The notes beneath the pieces are model-generated. The model searched no databases. It saw only the letters and a list, made by a program, of their open reading frames with translations, and was not told the DNA's origin. From a virus (Duplodnaviria > Caudoviricetes), in IMG/VR virus record IMGVR_UViG_3300032257_000041, positions 1 through 40,126 of that record: a stretch of DNA of 40,126 nucleotides; one strand, written 5' to 3'. The stretch's first letter is position 1; every line of letters begins with the position of its first letter. The position numbers and the translations under genes were made by a program. Shown one piece after another: positions 2,332 through 12,862 of the stretch.

Positions 2332-2531
2332 AATAAAACCTCCTTATGCCTATCTGGAAAGAGATCATAATGTAGGTCTAGTAACCTAATCCCCTGGCTG
2401 AACTTTGGTTCTGGTGTATCTCCCCTTGCTATTCTGCGTAGTGTTCCCGCGTCAATATCGGCCTGTATGGCTATCTTAGACAGTGGTTTGTGTCTTCTCA
2501 GGTTTAGGGTTAGTTGCTGCCAGTTAATCAA
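2328..2531 (-). CDS. small XRE/Cro-like HTH protein
   Basis: LSKIA...IDAGTLRRIARG...EP.FS.G pattern. Confidence 0.8.
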   Translation of the reverse strand: MINWQQLTLNLRRHKPLSKIAIQADIDAGTLRRIARGDTPEPKFSQGIRLLDLHYDLFPDRHKEVLL

Positions 2532-3277
2532 AATAGTTCCTTTGCGTTATTCTCTTGGTAGTGTTTTGGCGGTGTTTTTCGTTTAAGGATGCAGTCTTTT
2601 TTGGCGCTTGAGTGTATGAAATATAAATATCTAAACTGTCTTAACTTTTTTGATGTCGCGCTCTCTTTGTTTTCTTGTAGTTTTGCTGCGGCTTTACTTA
2701 AATTTGGGTTTCTAGTCATTAGGCTATTATGATAAATCTCGTTATCCAACTCCCAGAATATTGAAGTGTGCTCACCGTAATACCAGAAATTTGCCGCTTG
2801 GTACACAATTCCATTTTTCCCGCACCTTTCATCAGCGAAACTCTGTATCCAACGGATATTTGGATATTTGCGTTTTATGTATTTAATCGCATAACTTATT
2901 GCCATACTTTCACTGTTTTTTCTGCAATCGTCATGTAGCCACATTCGATTTAGCTCGAGGTAATCCTTTATTCCTGTATTTTTTACGACACTTGACTGGC
3001 TTGCTGGGTTCATTGCATAGCCAAACTGTAATATCCCGCTTAGTTTTTTTTCATAAAATACACCAAGATGTATGTAGGTTGCATTATAATATTTACCGCT
3101 GTAATGGTTTTCAATAATTATTTTATTAGCTAAATCCCTGTCCACTTCTTTTATATTGAAGTCGTCACGCCCAAACCCTACAACCTCAGTGTGCCCAAAC
3201 AAAGAGCCCTGCCCTGACATAATATAACCCTTTTTTATTTTTTCTTTCTTGGTTTCTAGTGCTTTCATTTCAATCAA
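2528..3277 (-). CDS. Mom-family (GNAT-fold) adenine modification protein
   Basis: NHYS, ELNRMWL, NSES..IS, IQSFADERCG..G.VYQAANF.YYG motifs of Mu Mom-like proteins. Confidence 0.85.
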   Translation of the reverse strand: MIEMKALETKKEKIKKGYIMSGQGSLFGHTEVVGFGRDDFNIKEVDRDLANKIIIENHYSGKYYNATYIHLGVFYEKKLSGILQFGYAMNPASQSSVVKNTGIKDYLELNRMWLHDDCRKNSESMAISYAIKYIKRKYPNIRWIQSFADERCGKNGIVYQAANFWYYGEHTSIFWELDNEIYHNSLMTRNPNLSKAAAKLQENKESATSKKLRQFRYLYFIHSSAKKDCILKRKTPPKHYQENNAKELF

Positions 3278-3900
3278 AACAAAGCCTCCTGCCTGGTTTC
3301 ATTATCAAACCGCTTTACCGCTGCGTCGTAATAGTCTTTATCAATCTCAATTCCTACGAAATCACAGCCGAAGTAATGAGCAGCTATTGCGCTGGAGCCT
3401 GAGCCTAGATGAGTGTCGAGTATCTTTTGGCCTGACTCTGCGTAGTTGGTTAGTAGCCAATCATAGAGTTTTACGGGTTTTTCGCATGGATGAATTGTGC
3501 TTGTTGGCCGGTTCACGTTCTGCCAAACAATGTCTACATATTCTACTTTTTTATGCTTTGAGCATGACGCGATTTCACATTTGCTCATGCTTGGGTGTCT
3601 TACGCTTTTATACCAAACGATTGCGCCGCCTTTGTTGGTAAAACAATTATAATAATTTGCGCCCCATATAATCTGATGCTCGGAAACCCTCTTAATCTCC
3701 CCGAAATAATTTTTATCAGGTATAGAATAATTCCAGTCTTGATTCCACTTCTTTTCCCATTTTGCGCCCCCATCACCATCTGTCATGCAAAACTCACCTA
3801 TCCCATAAGGCGGGTCTACACAAGCGAGGTTGAAGTAATTGTCTGGATAACGCGCCATCACGTCCATACAGTCTTCGTTAAGAAGTTCTATTTTTGGCAT
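3274..3900 (-). CDS. DNA N6-adenine/N4-cytosine methyltransferase (beta class)
   Basis: DPPY precedes HPCEKPV and ILDTHLGSGS. Confidence 0.92.
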   Translation of the reverse strand: MPKIELLNEDCMDVMARYPDNYFNLACVDPPYGIGEFCMTDGDGGAKWEKKWNQDWNYSIPDKNYFGEIKRVSEHQIIWGANYYNCFTNKGGAIVWYKSVRHPSMSKCEIASCSKHKKVEYVDIVWQNVNRPTSTIHPCEKPVKLYDWLLTNYAESGQKILDTHLGSGSSAIAAHYFGCDFVGIEIDKDYYDAAVKRFDNETRQEALF

Positions 3901-4349
3901 AAGGCATCGTCCAGTGTCATGTCGGATAGATAACGGCCACGAACAGGAGTATCTATATTTTCATCCCGATATGTGCCGCGCAGACTTTCCACCCTGAAAA
4001 ACATGGTTTGTTTAATATCTTTGTTTTTCATGTAACCAATCTGCTTCTCATCAAGAGCAACAAGTGCAAATATATCGCAGCTTTCACCCGTCCTCATTGA
4101 TCTATTGAACTTCCCGCAACGCTTAACATTAAACGCATAGGTATTCACATTGCTAACTCTTTGCGGTGTTTGCTTATGGGTTCTAGTCGCTTTCACCTGA
4201 ACTTTTAAAAGGACGCCGCCTGCATCTAAAACAACGTCATACGGCAAACCTTGTTCCGATGGATACGCTATAAACCCGCGCATTATTAAGTCAGCGCAAA
4301 CAAGGTACTCACCAGCCTTGCCTGCCGCCATATCGCTTATATCATTCAT
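3888..4349 (-). CDS. PD-(D/E)XK homing-type endonuclease (I-Ssp6803I-like)
   Basis: G..GE.LV...L...G, PYD.V.D, KVQVK, D.FALV motifs. Confidence 0.8.
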   Translation of the reverse strand: MNDISDMAAGKAGEYLVCADLIMRGFIAYPSEQGLPYDVVLDAGGVLLKVQVKATRTHKQTPQRVSNVNTYAFNVKRCGKFNRSMRTGESCDIFALVALDEKQIGYMKNKDIKQTMFFRVESLRGTYRDENIDTPVRGRYLSDMTLDDALCQK

Positions 4350-4450
4350 AAGTACATTATACTTATGTTTGCAACAATCGCCAGATCAAACTCATTATCC
4401 TTGCATGTTTTCATATATTCCATGCAGTCCATGTTTAATAATTCAATCAT
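4346..4450 (-). pseudogene. Orphaned N-terminal fragment of a DNA methyltransferase
   Basis: MIELLNMDCMEYMKTCKDNEFDLAIV aligns with the start of the intact MTase (IELLNEDCMDVMARYPDNYFNLACV) and diverges exactly where DPPY should begin. Confidence 0.85.
4347..4367 (-). promoter_or_regulatory. Hairpin sequestering the endonuclease start codon, overlapping a TATAAT
   Basis: Perfect 8-bp inverted repeat CATAAGTA-taatg-TACTTATG on the minus strand. Confidence 0.6.
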
Positions 4451-4517
4451 CTTCCATGTCCGGTTTTTGACCACCACGGAAGCCCGGTTGGTTCATCGTT
4501 TGGGTATTCAAGATTCA

Positions 4518-4736
4518 TTAGCCTGTACCTCGCAATATATCGAACTTAACGCCAAGTCTTTTTTGTGCATTTTCTGACGCCCTGTTTCTTGCTTCTCGGC
4601 CATCAGTAAAACCACGATAATATTCTGTGCTTATATCTTTGTTTTCGTGGTCGCCTTTTTTTGGATCTATTGCCCTAGTTGCTGCACCATCACGCCATCC
4701 GCTTGTGTAAGAGTAAAGCAAATCTTTTTTATTCAT
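4518..4736 (-). CDS. hypothetical protein
   Basis: ORF with Y..GW.DG / Y..GF.DG motifs. Confidence 0.7.
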   Translation of the reverse strand: MNKKDLLYSYTSGWRDGAATRAIDPKKGDHENKDISTEYYRGFTDGREARNRASENAQKRLGVKFDILRGTG

Positions 4737-5166
4737 TTCTTTCCTCAACCCCCATTGCTTCGTGATAATCCTCAGTCTTGCTCAGAATAATCTGTATTTC
4801 ATCATCTGTTGCAGCGTCGTGGTAGATCCTTTCTATAAAATCTGAAAACTCACCTACTTTAAGTTTAGTGGTTGATATAGGAACCCATGTAACCACGCCA
4901 CGTACTTCCTCCACACCCTCACCTAAAAACTTTTTCTTATAATATGCCGCCCAAGTATCCGGGGAATGAAATGTCCCGTGTGACGCTTCGTATTTTTTTG
5001 CCAGTTCGTTCATCATCGCCCAGAAAAGACGGTTTTGCGCAAGACTCCTGTCTTTTCTATAAAATTCTGATGTGATTTGAACTGGCTTGGTAACTTCCAT
5101 TGATTGAAGCCTGGATATTATTTTGGCTTTGTCGTGCTCATTTCTGATGATGTCGATATGCTTCAT
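4729..5166 (-). CDS. ninB: NinB-family recombination protein
   Basis: RSLAQNRLFWA and STTKLKVGEFSDFIERI motifs. Confidence 0.8.
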   Translation of the reverse strand: MKHIDIIRNEHDKAKIISRLQSMEVTKPVQITSEFYRKDRSLAQNRLFWAMMNELAKKYEASHGTFHSPDTWAAYYKKKFLGEGVEEVRGVVTWVPISTTKLKVGEFSDFIERIYHDAATDDEIQIILSKTEDYHEAMGVEERNE

Positions 5167-5206
5167 CACCACGCCCTCTGGAGTAACCCGCACTTATTGC
5201 AAGTCT

Positions 5207-5389
5207 TCATAGCTTGTTAACCGTTTTGTAGTAGTAAGATTCTAATTTAACCGCATCTGAGTATCTTGGATCTCTTAATTCCCCCCGTTTAATTCGTCGG
5301 ATAGTCCAGAAGTTGATCCCTGTCGCTTCTGCTACCTGCTTCATATTTGAAGTCCTGAGTAATTCAAATAACATCTTGTTCCAGTTCAT
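5207..5389 (-). CDS. small XRE/Cro-like HTH protein, paralog of 2328-2531
   Basis: NW...VAEATGI...TIRRIKRG...DP.YS pattern. Confidence 0.8.
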   Translation of the reverse strand: MNWNKMLFELLRTSNMKQVAEATGINFWTIRRIKRGELRDPRYSDAVKLESYYYKTVNKL

Positions 5390-5402
5390 ATCTCCCCCGG
5401 TT

Positions 5403-5457
5403 ATTTAACTTAAACGTTAAACCAGACCGCTTGCGGCTGGTTAACTTTATGTTATAA
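5403..5457 (+). mobile_element. attC-like recombination site 1 (55 bp)
   Basis: ATTTAAC-6 nt-GTTAAACC...GGTTAAC-5 nt-GTTATAA; imperfect palindrome with two extra bases on the left arm. Confidence 0.75.
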
Positions 5458-5652
5458 ACCATCAATAGAACGGTTTACTTGAACTATCGCTGTCATTGCC
5501 ACTTTAGGGAAGTCAGGGCATTTTGTGCTCCACTGCTCTGGTCGCCAGAGATACCCGCGCACTGCATTACAAGCGTCCTTGTACTCTTCTATTATTACTT
5601 TTAAATCTTCAATCTCTAATTGTTGTTTGGTAATCAATTCATCTTTAGTCAT
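5452..5652 (-). CDS. hypothetical protein inside the attC-bounded cassette
   Basis: MTKDELITKQQLEIE...; stop codon lies in the GTTA of site 1. Confidence 0.75.
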   Translation of the reverse strand: MTKDELITKQQLEIEDLKVIIEEYKDACNAVRGYLWRPEQWSTKCPDFPKVAMTAIVQVNRSIDGL

Positions 5653-5669
5653 AATATCCACCAGTTTGT

Positions 5670-5726
5670 TTATAACAAAACATTCAAGCCGACCTAAAAA
5701 CCAGTCGGATTATTAGGGTGTTAATG
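5670..5726 (+). mobile_element. attC-like recombination site 2 (57 bp)
   Basis: TTATAAC-AAAAC-ATTCAAGC-CGAC...GTCG-GATTATT-AGGGT-GTTAATG; L' box degenerate. Confidence 0.7.
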
Positions 5727-6080
5727 CGCCGCGTTATGTGGTAGATGTTCGTTAATTGCTTTATCAATCCCGCCCATCTCTTTTAGTTTTATTTTTGCTC
5801 GTTTTGCTACGCTCCAGTCTGGCTCGTTTCCTGCCTGATCTAGCCCTAATTCCTCGGTTTTCTCTCTTATCAACTTGTCCCGCCAGTCCTCGCGGTCTGT
5901 GCCTTTAATCTGGTGGTGGTAGCAGTCCCAACAATGAAAACCGTTATACTGAATCCTGGCCATTCTCCCGCATAGACACTTGATCCCGCCCTGTGCTTTT
6001 ACTGTGGATTTCCAGCCACACTCACAACGGGTTGCGCCTGCTAATAGTGGGGTTGTGCATTCAGGGCAACGGTTATCCAC
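5721..6080 (-). CDS. zinc-ribbon hypothetical protein downstream of the initiator
   Basis: CPEC, CECG, CLCG, CWDC. Confidence 0.75.
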   Translation of the reverse strand: MDNRCPECTTPLLAGATRCECGWKSTVKAQGGIKCLCGRMARIQYNGFHCWDCYHHQIKGTDREDWRDKLIREKTEELGLDQAGNEPDWSVAKRAKIKLKEMGGIDKAINEHLPHNAAH

Positions 6081-6798
6081 GTTCTACCTCCTGCTGTCCA
6101 AGTTCGCCAACGTATTGGGCGCATTTAGTTGCGTTGAATAGTGTCGCCGGTCTTAGGTAGGGTTCCATTTTTTCGTCGGTTCCCCACTCCCTGCACTTTT
6201 TAGCTATCACCTGCCGAAGTTGTGTTTTTGAATATTCTTTTAGTCTTGCAGAAATCATGGATAGATTTGATTTAACAGGCTGGTAGTTGCGCCCTGTTTT
6301 TTCGTTAAGGAAATTCAATATTTCTAATTCGTCGGGTTTGCCCGACATAAGTGTTTTAGATGGATCTGTATATGTATATGCATCTGTATGGGTCTTCTGC
6401 GGTCCACTGCGGTCTACATTGTCCACATTTTTATTTTTATTCCTGTATTCCCGTTGCTTTTCGGTCTTGTATGCGCGCCTTTCTTCTTCGTTGCGTATTG
6501 CTCGATACTTCCCGTGATTGAGAAGACGCCAGCCCCCTTCGATTTCCTCTATCCTGCGCCCTTCGTGGTCTTTGGTTCTACTGTATGGGTCTGGTGACAT
6601 AAACTTTTTTAAGGCTTTCTCTGCGTTCTCAATAGGCACTGATGCATATTTGGCTAGCCCTGGGATGCTTGCGAATACCCTACCGTTTTTGTCACACATA
6701 GCTAACATTGTGATCCATACGACTCTAATGTCTGAGTCTTCGCACCATATTGTTGAGGCAGTAATTGAAGAAAATAACTTTGTGAATGTGTGGCTCAT
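6073..6798 (-). CDS. Phage replication initiator (winged-HTH N-terminus, conserved phage C-terminal domain)
   Basis: TKLFSSI..S.IW.E N-terminus; ILNFLNEKTGRNY...YLRPATLF C-terminus. Confidence 0.85.
   Translation of the reverse strand: MSHTFTKLFSSITASTIWCEDSDIRVVWITMLAMCDKNGRVFASIPGLAKYASVPIENAEKALKKFMSPDPYSRTKDHEGRRIEEIEGGWRLLNHGKYRAIRNEEERRAYKTEKQREYRNKNKNVDNVDRSGPQKTHTDAYTYTDPSKTLMSGKPDELEILNFLNEKTGRNYQPVKSNLSMISARLKEYSKTQLRQVIAKKCREWGTDEKMEPYLRPATLFNATKCAQYVGELGQQEVERG
6401..6440. repeat. Candidate iterons/origin: three GTC(C/T)AC units at 9-10 bp spacing plus an AT-rich tract
   Basis: ggtccactgc ggtctacatt gtccacattt ttatttttat within the initiator gene. Confidence 0.5.
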
Positions 6799-6826
6799 AT
6801 CTATCCCTTATATATTCAATATGTCC

Positions 6827-6855
6827 ACTGTAGACAATTTAGTCCACACTGTCAA
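6827..6855 (-). promoter_or_regulatory. sigma70-type promoter of the initiator gene
   Basis: TTGACA-17-TACAGT. Confidence 0.7.
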
Positions 6856-6865
6856 CATATCTGCT

Positions 6866-7153
6866 TTATTCATCTTCAGGCCCCCATTTTTTTAATATTT
6901 CCCGCCCTCTTTTTAACACCTCTTGCGGATCTCTTAATGATTCAGGCAGCTCTATCTCCACTAAACCCATAATCTCCTGATGTACTTCGTCTGATACCTG
7001 ATCGCCTGTTTCGATATCAATGAGGGTTCCATCCTGAAAGTTAAGGTATGTTTTAAAGTTAACCCCGAATAATGCGTCTTTATGGGGAGATTCGCAGACA
7101 GATAATATTTCGCCGCCGTCTATTTCTATTAATTTTTCCAGTATTCTGTGCAT
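6866..7153 (-). CDS. hypothetical protein
   Basis: ORF with GGAG RBS. Confidence 0.7.
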   Translation of the reverse strand: MHRILEKLIEIDGGEILSVCESPHKDALFGVNFKTYLNFQDGTLIDIETGDQVSDEVHQEIMGLVEIELPESLRDPQEVLKRGREILKKWGPEDE

Positions 7154-7251
7154 ATCTATCTCCTGTTTAATTTAAAGGGATCTCTCCCAAGGGTGGATAG
7201 GGGTAAGGGTTTAGCCTTAGTTGCCTATCACCATATCCATATTACTTATCT

Positions 7252-7381
7252 GTAAAGGTACTTAGAAGAAAGGTTGATTGCTACCCCGATTCTCCACGAT
7301 AACAGTCTTCTCGCTTTCATGGTCGGGACGATTGGTGACTGTCCAACCGGCTAAACCAACCTCTCATCTAAATACCCTTAC
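7252..7381 (-). ncRNA. Candidate structured RNA with a pseudoknot
   Basis: 28-bp closing stem with 23 Watson-Crick pairs and 4 G-U pairs on the minus strand; internal hairpins; loop ACAGTC complementary to GACTGT. Confidence 0.6.
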
Positions 7382-7409
7382 CCGTAATACTAATATCCGC
7401 AAAACGGTG

Positions 7410-7712
7410 TTAACTTATCCGCTTATGGCCTTGTGTCTGCTCCAGAATCTTACCTAACTTTAAAATGAAAACTTGCTTTCCTTCTGGGGCGCCCCACTCG
7501 ATAATGCCAAGCGAAGAATAAAGCCCCTTACATTCGACCAACATTGTCGGAGAATCCTTTGAATATCCATTTCTAAACTGGATCACATCATAGCTTTTGT
7601 TGATAAGCCGCCTATTCCAGTAAGGCTTTATTTCGCGGTATTCCTCGCGCTTTTCGCCGCTGGCTATCATGTCAAACCATTTTTTCTTTAAAGTTAAGTG
7701 CAAAACCTTCAT
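7410..7712 (-). CDS. ASCH/PUA-like domain protein
   Basis: LHLTLKKKWFDMIASGEKREEYRE...F.NGY motif. Confidence 0.85.
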   Translation of the reverse strand: MKVLHLTLKKKWFDMIASGEKREEYREIKPYWNRRLINKSYDVIQFRNGYSKDSPTMLVECKGLYSSLGIIEWGAPEGKQVFILKLGKILEQTQGHKRIS

Positions 7713-7942
7713 CACATTCCACCTATAAAAACCTCTGCTTTTGTACCTCAGTAACACTCTGGATACGTCAACCTGCGCCTCAAGGGTGTATCGGCGCGAC
7801 TGGTGTTTTCTTCCTGGCGGGCCATTCAACCCCACTGCTAACGGGAGGAGTCCGGCGACTTATAGATAAATATCTATGGAATAACGGAAATATATAGGTT
7901 AAGATAATGGTAGTTGTTTGCATTCCGGTTAGTCGCATAACC

Positions 7943-7971
7943 AAGATATGACATATCTATAAACCTGTCAA
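7943..7971 (-). promoter_or_regulatory. sigma70-type promoter with an internal palindrome (AGATATG-A-CATATCT, 7944-7958)
   Basis: TTGACA-17-TATCTT. Confidence 0.65.
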
Positions 7972-7973
7972 TA

Positions 7974-8004
7974 GGGGGTCTCAATCGAGGCTCCCTTCTT
8001 TTTT
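7974..8004 (+). terminator. Intrinsic terminator-like hairpin
   Basis: GGGGGTCTCAATCGAGGCTCCC followed by a T-rich tract. Confidence 0.5.
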
Positions 8005-8157
8005 GTCGCACTTACTGGCATTACAACTTAAACATAGAAATCTTAGATTATTTATGTTGTCTGTTCCGCCTTTCGATAAAGGATATATGTGATCGATTGT
8101 AATGTTATCTGCGCTACCACAAACAGCACATATATAGTCATGACCCAAATCAAGCAT
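7981..8157 (-). CDS. Minimal or 5'-truncated HNH endonuclease (58 aa)
   Basis: CAVC...IDHIYPLSKGG...NL..LC.SCN..K (manually translated); frame open upstream to a TAG at 8221-8223. Confidence 0.75.
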   Translation of the reverse strand: MLDLGHDYICAVCGSADNITIDHIYPLSKGGTDNINNLRFLCLSCNASKCDKKEGSLD

Positions 8158-8234
8158 TTGTAGTGTTAGCCTGGCTTTATTCGCAGCAAACTCCCTGCGC
8201 CTTACCTTTATGGCTTCCCACTAGAAGCGCAATT

Positions 8235-8258
8235 AACCCGGCTTATGTCGGGTTTTTT
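8235..8258 (+). terminator. Intrinsic terminator
   Basis: AACCCGGC-ttat-GTCGGGTT then TTTT. Confidence 0.65.
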
Positions 8259-8282
8259 GTGCCTTATGGTTTGCTGCAATCC

Positions 8283-8537
8283 TTAAAAATATATCAATGG
8301 AGAAGTCTCCTGATTTTCAGTTGCGCCAACGTCTGAGAGGTATTCTTTAGTGATCCAGCGTCCCTTTTTGTTTTTAGACATACCTTTTTCTCTCATTTCC
8401 TCGATAGGCAGACATTTTCTGCGGTCTTTCTTAAAAGATCCGGTTCTGTGCTTATCGAATGCATGCGTAGAATTAAACACCTCATAACATGCTGTGCATT
8501 GACATATATCTGACCCGTTGGGTAGTAATTTACTCAT
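8283..8537 (-). CDS. Phage FDxHR-type zinc-binding protein
   Basis: CTAC..VF.S..AFDKHR.G....R.C motif. Confidence 0.75.
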   Translation of the reverse strand: MSKLLPNGSDICQCTACYEVFNSTHAFDKHRTGSFKKDRRKCLPIEEMREKGMSKNKKGRWITKEYLSDVGATENQETSPLIYF

Positions 8538-8731
8538 TTCTTCAACCTATAACCTATAGTTTTAATCACCCCGATTTCATCCAATACGGGCTTAGTTGGT
8601 GCCTCTTTCCCGCCTATCATGCGATTGAGTTGCGACCTATCCATATCTAAATGCCTAGCAAATTCCGCCTGGCTTTTGTAGTGCTTATTAATATGTCGCT
8701 TTAGCCTTGTTATTACATTATCAAACGTCAT
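8534..8731 (-). CDS. small XRE HTH regulator
   Basis: SQAEFARHLDMDRSQLNRMI.G...P. Confidence 0.85.
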   Translation of the reverse strand: MTFDNVITRLKRHINKHYKSQAEFARHLDMDRSQLNRMIGGKEAPTKPVLDEIGVIKTIGYRLKK

Positions 8732-8756
8732 TTATTTGTCCCCTTCGTTTTATTGT

Positions 8757-8855
8757 AGTATAAGGGAAATATTGTTAATGTCAATATATAATCTCAACAT
8801 TGTTGATATATTTTCTTGACATTGGTTTGATGTTGGCTTAAGCTTAATCTCAACA
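8757..8855. promoter_or_regulatory. Divergent promoter pair with candidate operators
   Basis: Minus: TTGACA(8784-8779)-16-TATACT. Plus: TTGACA(8816)-17-TAAGCT. Palindrome TCAACA-T-TGTTGA at 8794-8806; TAATCTCAACA repeated at 8845. Confidence 0.7.
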
Positions 8856-8884
8856 GTTACAGATTAATAACTAGAGGAAACAAA

Positions 8885-9142
8885 ATGAAAAAATTAGTAG
8901 AACAAGTAGAGGGCGAAGGTTTTGAGGCATTAATGGGTGAAGCGATCACCGTGTTTTGCCTGAATTACATTTATACAGGAAAGCTTGTCGGCGTGAATGA
9001 TACCTGTATTTTGCTGGATGAACCAAAAATCGTCTATGAAACCGGATCATTTGAAGATGACGCATGGAAAGACGCGCAAAAACTCCCTAATCAATTATAC
9101 ATCCAGACCGGATGCGTTGAATCATTTGGAATTATTAAATGA
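8885..9142 (+). CDS. Sm/LSm-like fold protein (putative)
   Basis: helix-G-strand...Y.G.L.GV....ILL.E...LYI....V.SF matches the Sm1/Sm2 pattern; GAGG RBS. Confidence 0.65.
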   Translation: MKKLVEQVEGEGFEALMGEAITVFCLNYIYTGKLVGVNDTCILLDEPKIVYETGSFEDDAWKDAQKLPNQLYIQTGCVESFGIIK

Positions 9143-11742: not shown

Positions 11743-12255
11743 ATGAGCGAAGAAACCAAAACACATTATAGGAAGGCGTTTAAATCACCGTATCTGAGTA
11801 GTGCTGATATTGTTGATCCTACAGTTTTGACGATTAAGCATGTAAAGCTTGAGCTGGATAAAACCAAAAAAACAAAAGATTTCCATAATACAGCTTATTT
11901 CAATCAATCAGAACTACGACCGGGCGAACCATTAAAGCCGATGATCCTTAATGTTTACAATTCTAAAGTTGTTTGCAATATGACCGGATCAAAGTTTATT
12001 GATGACTGGAATAATGTCCCTGTGACCGTATACGTCGAAAGTAATGTAAGGTTTGGCAGAGATACCGTAGAAGGGCTACGGTTGAGCACAGAGCCACCAG
12101 CCACCCGCAGAAAATTACAAAGGAATACGCAGCAGTGGAATAACGCTATAGCGGCTTATAAGCGTGATGGCAATCTTGACGCTGTGGTGGCGCGTGTAGA
12201 CGTTTCCGATGAAGATGTGCAGCTTATCAAAGAGCAAGCTAATAATGTGGCATGA
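11743..12255 (+). CDS. Putative ssDNA-binding/annealing partner of the exonuclease
   Basis: Position before a YqaJ exonuclease and SSB; function inferred from context only. Confidence 0.55.
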   Translation: MSEETKTHYRKAFKSPYLSSADIVDPTVLTIKHVKLELDKTKKTKDFHNTAYFNQSELRPGEPLKPMILNVYNSKVVCNMTGSKFIDDWNNVPVTVYVESNVRFGRDTVEGLRLSTEPPATRRKLQRNTQQWNNAIAAYKRDGNLDAVVARVDVSDEDVQLIKEQANNVA

Positions 12256-12862
12256 CATCGAACAGAACACGGATGAATGGCTAGATTTAAGAGCCGGTAA
12301 AATAACCGGCTCGAGTATAGGAAAAATAATGGCCAACTATGGGAAATCCTTCGGAGAACCAGCCAAAAAATTAGCTGTTTCTATTGCTCGTGAGCAAGCA
12401 ACAGGAAAAAGAAGCTTGATTGAACAATACAGTAACAAACATATGGAACGCGGCCACGAACAAGAGCCAATTGCAAGACGCATATATGAAGATCAGTATT
12501 TTACAGAAGTTACAAATGGTGGTTTTTTTGATTGCGGTTATACCGGCTGTTCACCAGACGGACTTATTCTAAACGAAGGCGTTATAGAGATTAAGTCTGT
12601 TGTCGATCATATTCATTATGCAAATATAGTAAGGGGAAGTTTTGACCCTACTTATAAGTGGCAGCTTGCATTTAATCTTAAAAATTCAAACAGAGAATGG
12701 ATTGATTTTGTTAGTTTTTGCGCCGACTTTCCAGAAAAAACAAAACTATACGTGCATCGCACATATAAAGGTGAATTTAATGATTTATTTGAAATGATGA
12801 ATAAAAGGATCGACGAATTTCTTAAGTTGATTAATGAGGCTAAATTAATAATCGAGGGTTGA
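12245..12862 (+). CDS. YqaJ/lambda-exonuclease family protein
   Basis: EQ.T.EW...R.G.ITGS, G...[17 protein letters not shown]. Confidence 0.92.

Follow-up and report, generated by a model that had tools for sequence, protein, structure and literature searches.

A likely worn integron cassette of reversed polarity in an integrase-free phage

It has long been asked by what means phages swap small genes precisely at gene borders, and the question is raised in concrete form by a short gene that lies between two attC-like hairpins in a virus record of 40,126 nt. This record, analysed in full and called the window below, represents a whole virus (CheckV, 100%), and its gene content combines P22-like head, connector, and ejection genes with a lambdoid early region (PHROG). 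The closest relatives of its capsid are found in Pseudomonas phage AH02 (65%) and then in a Vibrio phage (55%), and the named homologues of the protein encoded between the hairpins belong to Shewanella and Zhongshania; a gammaproteobacterial host is therefore likely. The locus is most likely a real but worn integron cassette of reversed polarity in an integrase-free phage, a variant of the phage CALINs that are already known.

In terms of recombinases, none of the 40,126 nt matches PF00589 (tyrosine recombinases), TIGR02249 (integron integrases), or PF00239 (resolvases and serine recombinases); in control searches PF00589 exceeded its cut-off in 14 of 14 genomes and PF00239 in 12 of 14. The initial annotation, which had seen neither an IntI nor any other tyrosine recombinase, is thereby borne out, and the intI–attI pair of a complete integron is absent from the record. 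The recombination genes that the phage does carry encode a RecE-like exonuclease (12209–12862), SSB, and NinB (PHROG). Lambdoid repressors and recombination genes are thus present, yet an integrase or resolvase is missing, in a record that is rated complete.

The two hairpins, site 1 (5403–5457, 55 nt) and site 2 (5670–5726, 57 nt), both have their top strand on the + strand, and they were judged by the definition of attC that calls for two or three extrahelical bases on the R''–L'' arm (PMC2727003, PMC5027507). The core sites of site 1, ATTTAAC and GTTATAA, contain exact AAC and GTT triplets with flanks that depart in part from the consensus RYYYAAC...GTTRRRY. Its extrahelical bases are two A residues that stay unpaired in the left arm when the + strand is read, and that are T on the bottom strand; the first of them is a T there, not a G, which we count against reading the locus as a cassette array. 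Site 1 folds into a single hairpin (−10.7 kcal/mol, z −3.84) that is equalled by 1 of 200 shuffles. Letters and fold together confirm the position, the AAC...GTT cores, and the two extrahelical left-arm bases that had been assigned to this site. The spacers of 5 to 6 nt were also correct in length, but it had been missed that in site 1 they stand in the order 6 left and 5 right, the inverse of the usual 5/6.

Site 2, the attC that would belong to the cassette itself, has the classical 5/6 spacers, a degenerate L box, core sites TTATAAC and GTTAATG (AAC and GTT again exact, flanks again partly off consensus), and a left arm that carries the extrahelical bases on the + strand. Its fold is at chance level (z −0.61; 44 of 200 shuffles as good); attC1 of phage PH101, a site active with IntI1, likewise leaves its R box unpaired when folded at minimum energy. 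The aadA-type stretch that had been noted in this site is there, in the left arm: ATTCAAGCCGAC recurs in class 1 attC sites and in attC-aadA7 (Qi 2023 Table S3, PMC9892861). Also present is the further half-site reported beside it: the remnant at 5720–5739 (+ strand) is a second right-hand half-site that ends in GCGTTATGT at 5731–5739, is read through by the upstream gene, and resembles the right ends of Vibrio attC sites in locus L067.

Both sites were scored on a home-made covariance model, trained on 21 bacterial attC sites that were picked by eye from parser output in integrons that adjoin an intI gene (class 1, class 2, Shewanella, and Vibrio, with most long Vibrio sites excluded). A covariance scan, of the kind that the initial annotation had called for, hits both sites on the + strand; with this 21-sequence model site 1 reaches 11.2 bits and site 2 reaches 15.6 bits (E 0.28). 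These values lie under the threshold of 20 bits that Qi 2023 applied with a different model (PMC9892861), and we count this against the array reading as well. A CALIN consists of at least two close attC sites with no intI nearby; here intI is absent and the two sites are 213 nt apart, each below 20 bits. Taken alone, the site scores are not significant. Two phages listed by Qi 2023, Shewanella phage 3/49 and Vibrio phage H188 (PMC9892861), gave no match to our model at E ≤ 1; some sites escape the model. The top score in the window, 16.5 bits (E 0.18, + strand), falls on 5366–5422, which overlaps the start and ribosome-binding site of a neighbouring gene and may be an older attC remnant; this assignment is uncertain, and the fold is unlike attC (z −0.31) although the score is the highest. 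Scanning 4500–7000 against Rfam gave a chance snoRNA match only, and blastn searches of each site against plasmids and of 4700–6800 against cultured phages gave nothing beyond chance.

The cassette defined by the two sites is a 269-bp unit (5452–5720), bounded on the left by the G|TT crossover point of site 1 (5451|5452, + strand) and on the right at a position placed from site 2. It contains one gene (5452–5652, − strand) for a 66-aa protein that is predicted to be all-helical. The stop codon of this gene, TAA, lies inside the core site, and as had been noted earlier each of the two minus-strand genes has its stop within the GTTA of one of the sites, the cassette gene at 5452–5454 and the 119-aa upstream gene (5721–6080, − strand; no family in PHROG, Pfam, or NCBIfam) at 5721–5723 in site 2. 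With the genes on the − strand and both sites on the + strand, the cassette gene is antisense to its attC, which upholds the earlier statement that the genes run against the usual, though not universal, cassette polarity. The 66-aa protein belongs to no Pfam, PHROG, or NCBIfam family and has no match among cultured phages. Its structure model has a pLDDT of 95, a fold search with this model returned nothing at E ≤ 0.001, and its atlas neighbours are unnamed, mostly viral clusters.

The cassette sits between two genes of the same strand whose functions can be named. Upstream, the replication initiator (6073–6798, − strand; PHROG 428, E 7.6e-21) is the first gene of an operon that likely reads through the cassette, and it is preceded by a sigma-70-like promoter candidate (6827–6855, − strand) that matches 10 of 12 consensus positions, a consensus match only in a region where eight such sites were found against 7.0 by chance, so that the count is at chance level. 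Two mutually related inverted repeats, at 6818–6851 around the promoter candidate and at 6405–6429 within the initiator gene, are possibly operator or origin sites. Downstream of the array lies a gene for a 60-aa Cro-like HTH protein (5207–5389, − strand; PF01381, E 7e-5; PHROG 6223), for which a homologue search gave two proteins only; this gene is constant and is matched by contigs of all four related strains described below.

The left end of the cassette (5451–5459) is the exact 9-nt reverse complement of its R'' end (5668–5676), as had been pointed out; the value placed on this as the signature of an integrated circle is weak, however, since five 9-mers that start with GTT have such a partner 150–1000 nt away in the window. 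This count, together with the weak model scores and the dozens of weaker hairpin candidates that our ad hoc parser found in the window, is what speaks for a chance palindrome or a transcription terminator beside an ordinary phage gene. We consider that explanation highly improbable: site 1 is the highest-scoring hairpin in the window on the same parser and is not called as a terminator, and the junctions in related strains and the surroundings of homologous genes both indicate these very sites. The junction data in particular already largely refute it.

Nine runs contain part of 4700–6800, and six of them, X1 to X5 and X9, were compared with the window; X5 gave no matching contig, X9 gave short unlike pieces only, and four, X1 to X4, are informative (X1 to X3 are mat samples from one year, perhaps from one campaign). 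In X3 (study P3) a 396-nt contig with a depth of only 4.1 is identical to the window over 5451–5652 and then continues into 194 other letters to the left of 5451, 30 of which were read and resemble one arm of a further attC; X3 additionally has the left arm of site 1 as far as 5435. In X1, possibly the source sample, the assembly graph forms a bubble from 5366 to 5480, with the window path of 115 nt at a depth of 18.8 and a minor path of 694 nt at a depth of 6. The minor path departs after 5411 and rejoins at 5451, where its overlap with 5451–5480 amounts to 30 letters only. Its letters 304–333 are a copy of 5427–5456 with two differences, in other words a right half like that of site 1 with its GTT, and the spacing would leave room for two additional cassettes, one near 280 nt and the other near 340 nt in length.

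X2, represented by a 20.5-kb contig, and X4 match the window from the HTH side up to 5411 and then share 11 letters, CGTGTTATACG, which complete a simple site of the form TAAC–5 nt–GTTA. Site 1 is absent from both; the short simple site stands in its place and is followed by two mutually unrelated sequences, other cassettes, each with an open frame that by eye ends at the core TAA. The nine letters 5403–5411 (+ strand), the box ATTTAAC plus 2 nt, are constant, and X2, X4, and the minor path of X1 all diverge directly after them. The arrangements in X1, X2, X3, and X4 show that at least four arrangements exist at this one locus, for which a small variable array with its anchor at 5403–5411 is the better description, a larger picture than that of one cassette. 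The expectation that boundaries in relatives fall at G|TT holds on the left, at 5451 in X3 and X1, but no junction at 5720 occurs in any strain contig, and the contig of X1 runs unbroken from 5451 to 6753. Most of the cassette gene is uncovered in X2 and X4, but as no contig spans the gap we do not count this as absence; one contig of X2 retains 5728–5750. From the anchor box to GTT, the window and X2/X4 have different letters, a difference that crossover at G|TT alone leaves unexplained. Searches of viral contigs for further relatives by the flanking proteins or by an 18-nt anchor pattern gave none that was useful.

The reversed spacers of site 1 count against the array reading but are compatible with these junctions. 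Inverting this spacer in a Vibrio attC site lowered recombination 470-fold and kept the cut in R' (PMC2727003), which fits a junction that is still at 5451. Site 1 itself we infer to be a hybrid of the anchor and the attC of a lost cassette, an origin that would explain both why its left spacer has 6 nt and why the minor path of X1 contains a right half that resembles it; a pattern search for the parent site returned three chance loci and no parent. As for site 2, it appears to be decaying, and the present copy of the cassette may be heading to fixation.

Other genes are swapped among the same relatives at positions outside any att site (4517–4742, 5186, 5206, 5752, and 6874–6956), which also counts against the array reading. 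Two of these events, a 224-nt skip at 4517–4742 and a 120-nt insert at 5186, were considered as cassette events and rejected, as neither lies at G|TT; the skip removes a 76-aa gene (4518–4748) cleanly from X2 and X4, at a stop/start overlap. The methylase slot is variable too, with contigs of several strains departing from the window at 4450 into differing letters. Close by, a 43-codon piece at 4346–4477 looks like the beginning of a DNA methylase gene and lies directly upstream of the region with the intact methylase, 3274–3900, which is adjoined by a Mom-like DNA modification gene (2528–3277; PHROG 1384, E 1e-56).

Exchange at non-att points, in a phage that encodes the exonuclease, SSB, and NinB, is what would be expected if old integron relics now served as short shared linkers for the phage's own homologous recombination and no integrase acted today. 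The degenerate scores and folds of the sites agree with this as well, and so does the GTTATA core common to most of these cassettes, since micro-homology would place the apparent junction at the same spot. We nevertheless regard this explanation as unlikely, because the shared sequence starts exactly at the G of 5451 in two samples with no longer homology to the left, because cassettes with homologous genes diverge directly after TAAC, and because intact sites of 35–41 bits flank the same gene elsewhere.

The last two observations come from homologues of the cassette protein, of which 76 (mostly 64–72 aa, its own sequence included) were found at E ≤ 0.001 among 143 candidates. Fifty-four loci were retrieved; partial or weaker ones were dropped, which left 14 non-self loci whose homologue is at least 55% identical across nearly its whole length. 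The gene ends in TATAAC in 11 of these 14 loci (6 of 9 near-identical groups), against 2 of 102 other ORFs at the same loci, and the ending is missing in three. In three copies that are 94–96% alike (L011, L014, and L015) the 60 nt upstream are common (92–97%) and the sequences diverge directly after TAAC (10–33%), as would be expected of crossover at G|TT on the other strand. The homologue at L008 lies in a unit that is also 269 bp long, with complementary ends (8 nt), between sites of 40.9 and 35.2 bits on the strand opposite to the gene; the L008 site has no blastn match among phages. L014 is a small array with sites of 29.1 and 26.2 bits, again on the strand opposite to its genes. Against the array reading, sites of at least 20 bits stand behind the gene in only 2 of the 14 loci and in front of it in only 1, and most other loci retain only a half-site or TAAC, which suggests that decay after insertion is frequent. 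In the genome collection, two loci hold a homologue and neither has an attC or a true IntI; the gene was thus not found there in a chromosomal integron.

Two further features were seen around these genes. At L012 (2306–2434), at L014 (15–145), and after the homologue at L050, long attC-like sites have a loop that contains the start of the following gene together with its ribosome-binding site. Around more distant homologues, the flanks carry short repeated linkers, of the TAACCAACCA type at L025, L026, L036, and L038 and of the TAGCTAACGATTATATATAGG type at L022 and L023, which are not attC hairpins and are possibly another class of gene-swapping linker.

Reversed polarity recurs in other phages. 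When viral contigs were searched with an IntI from Shewanella, two loci were obtained, one of which, L068, encodes a true IntI (TIGR02249, 296.6 bits; cut-off 265). Just upstream of it (6883–8987), a cytosine methylase gene ends in TATAAC inside an attI-like site and is preceded by, and antisense to, an attC of 27 bits, so that L068 appears, judged from its sequence, to be a complete reversed phage integron in which the intI–attC relation is normal and the gene is flipped. Of the CALIN phages of Qi 2023 we examined five records (PH101, ctTUS972, TJE1, H188, and 3/49). PH101 (L082, 25919–27987) has four sites on the + strand, one of them the tested attC1 (Table S3), and annotated genes on the − strand; ctTUS972 (L088, 2069–3738) has four sites on the − strand (15–29 bits) and genes on the + strand; and TJE1 has classical polarity. 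Two attC sites of PH101 recombined with attI1 under IntI1, the bottom strand better than the top (Qi 2023, PMC9892861), and reversed-polarity sites can therefore be substrates of IntI.

Phage attC clusters are thus known, and the window resembles those CALINs in having attC-like sites around a small gene and no integrase, with PH101 and ctTUS972 reversed too. It differs from them in that its sites are weaker than their 20-bit threshold (models differ), and in the accessible part of that paper (PMC9892861) genes antisense to attC go unmentioned, PH101 is called typical, and strain-level exchange data do not appear. A description of phage cassettes antisense to attC was likewise not found in the literature covered, mostly that outside subscription journals. 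With classical integrons (class 1 intI1/attI1/attC and the chromosomal integrons of Shewanella and Vibrio) the locus shares core sites, L boxes, complementary cassette ends, extrahelical bases on the R''–L'' arm, and the junction at G|TT. Unlike them, it has no intI and no Pc, its gene is on the bottom strand with the attC in front, transcription would head towards the anchor, and the spacers of site 1 are reversed.

The simple site of X2 and X4 has counterparts in Δ-attI cassettes such as blaOXA-10, where a short simple site with a box 5 nt before G|TT replaces a full attC (PMC12901181); the box is in this position in the oxa10 junction that we read directly. IntI can also insert cassettes at short GWT sites outside integrons (attG; Loot et al., bioRxiv 10.1101/2022.09.11.507474). 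In contrast to Δ-attI and attG as these sources present them, the left box of the X2/X4 site contains a complete inverse core, and several cassettes within a single phage lineage make use of this site in turn. L068 resembles the "reverse" integrons of Treponema, with inverted integrases (PMC4889954), in that its cassette gene points in the same direction as intI, whereas in L068 intI is normal to attC and the gene is flipped instead.

The near-perfect inverted core pair of the X2/X4 anchor is unlike characterised attI sites, whose L boxes, as far as the available source describes them, never match the core (PMC2727003). This would suit the same cassette system run by a tyrosine recombinase other than IntI, for example a Xer-like host enzyme, or acting at a double-stranded simple site. 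We hold this to be quite improbable, as the model built from IntI integrons has matches in site 2 and in the sites that flank the homologues, and as a reversed cassette occurs beside a true IntI in L068. In a dif site the cores are 14 nt apart; here the spacing is 5–6 nt, on which ground a dif/Xer site was rejected.

The explanation that we favour, and consider probable, is that the locus holds a 269-bp reversed integron-type cassette with neighbours that differ at the left G|TT, and that an integron integrase is likely provided in trans, either by the host or by a second phage in the same cell. Of the earlier proposal that the phage uses a host integron integrase to gain and shuffle genes, the integron-type cassette, its reversed polarity, the lack of an integrase of its own, and the exchange of left neighbours at G|TT 5451 stand; neither the boundary at 5720 nor a 269-bp circle was seen. 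By analogy with classical integrons, the bottom (minus) strand of attC would fold and be cut at AA|C, and each gene would therefore travel with a hairpin in front of it and contribute nothing but its stop codon to the site that follows. Cassettes would be gained and lost beside the fixed anchor at 5403–5411, and their genes, being on the bottom strand, would be transcribed from the replication-operon promoter (candidate at 6855–6827) through the initiator and towards the anchor. The window would then show a reduced array, in which site 1 arose by deletion between the TAAC of the anchor and the attC of a lost cassette.

These contigs place exchanges between strains at the integron crossover point in a phage that lacks a recombinase, which, together with the minimal anchor site, gives the locus its particular value; they also name a testable route, a host IntI acting on phage DNA, with short sites for an assay. 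A reversed cassette would be silent from Pc if captured by a bacterial integron and expressed in a phage operon. Such silence would keep the phage and bacterial cassette pools largely apart, and this separation may explain why these cassettes are under-described by surveys that assume the usual polarity. More tentatively, as a possibility that we put somewhat short of probable, phages keep their own cassette pool of mirror polarity, and the present lineage is an integrase-free phage integron in which a fixed, minimal simple site within the replication operon takes the part of attI, and to which host IntI adds different cassettes again and again in living populations. If true, integrons would be an engine of phage mosaicism besides one of bacterial adaptation.
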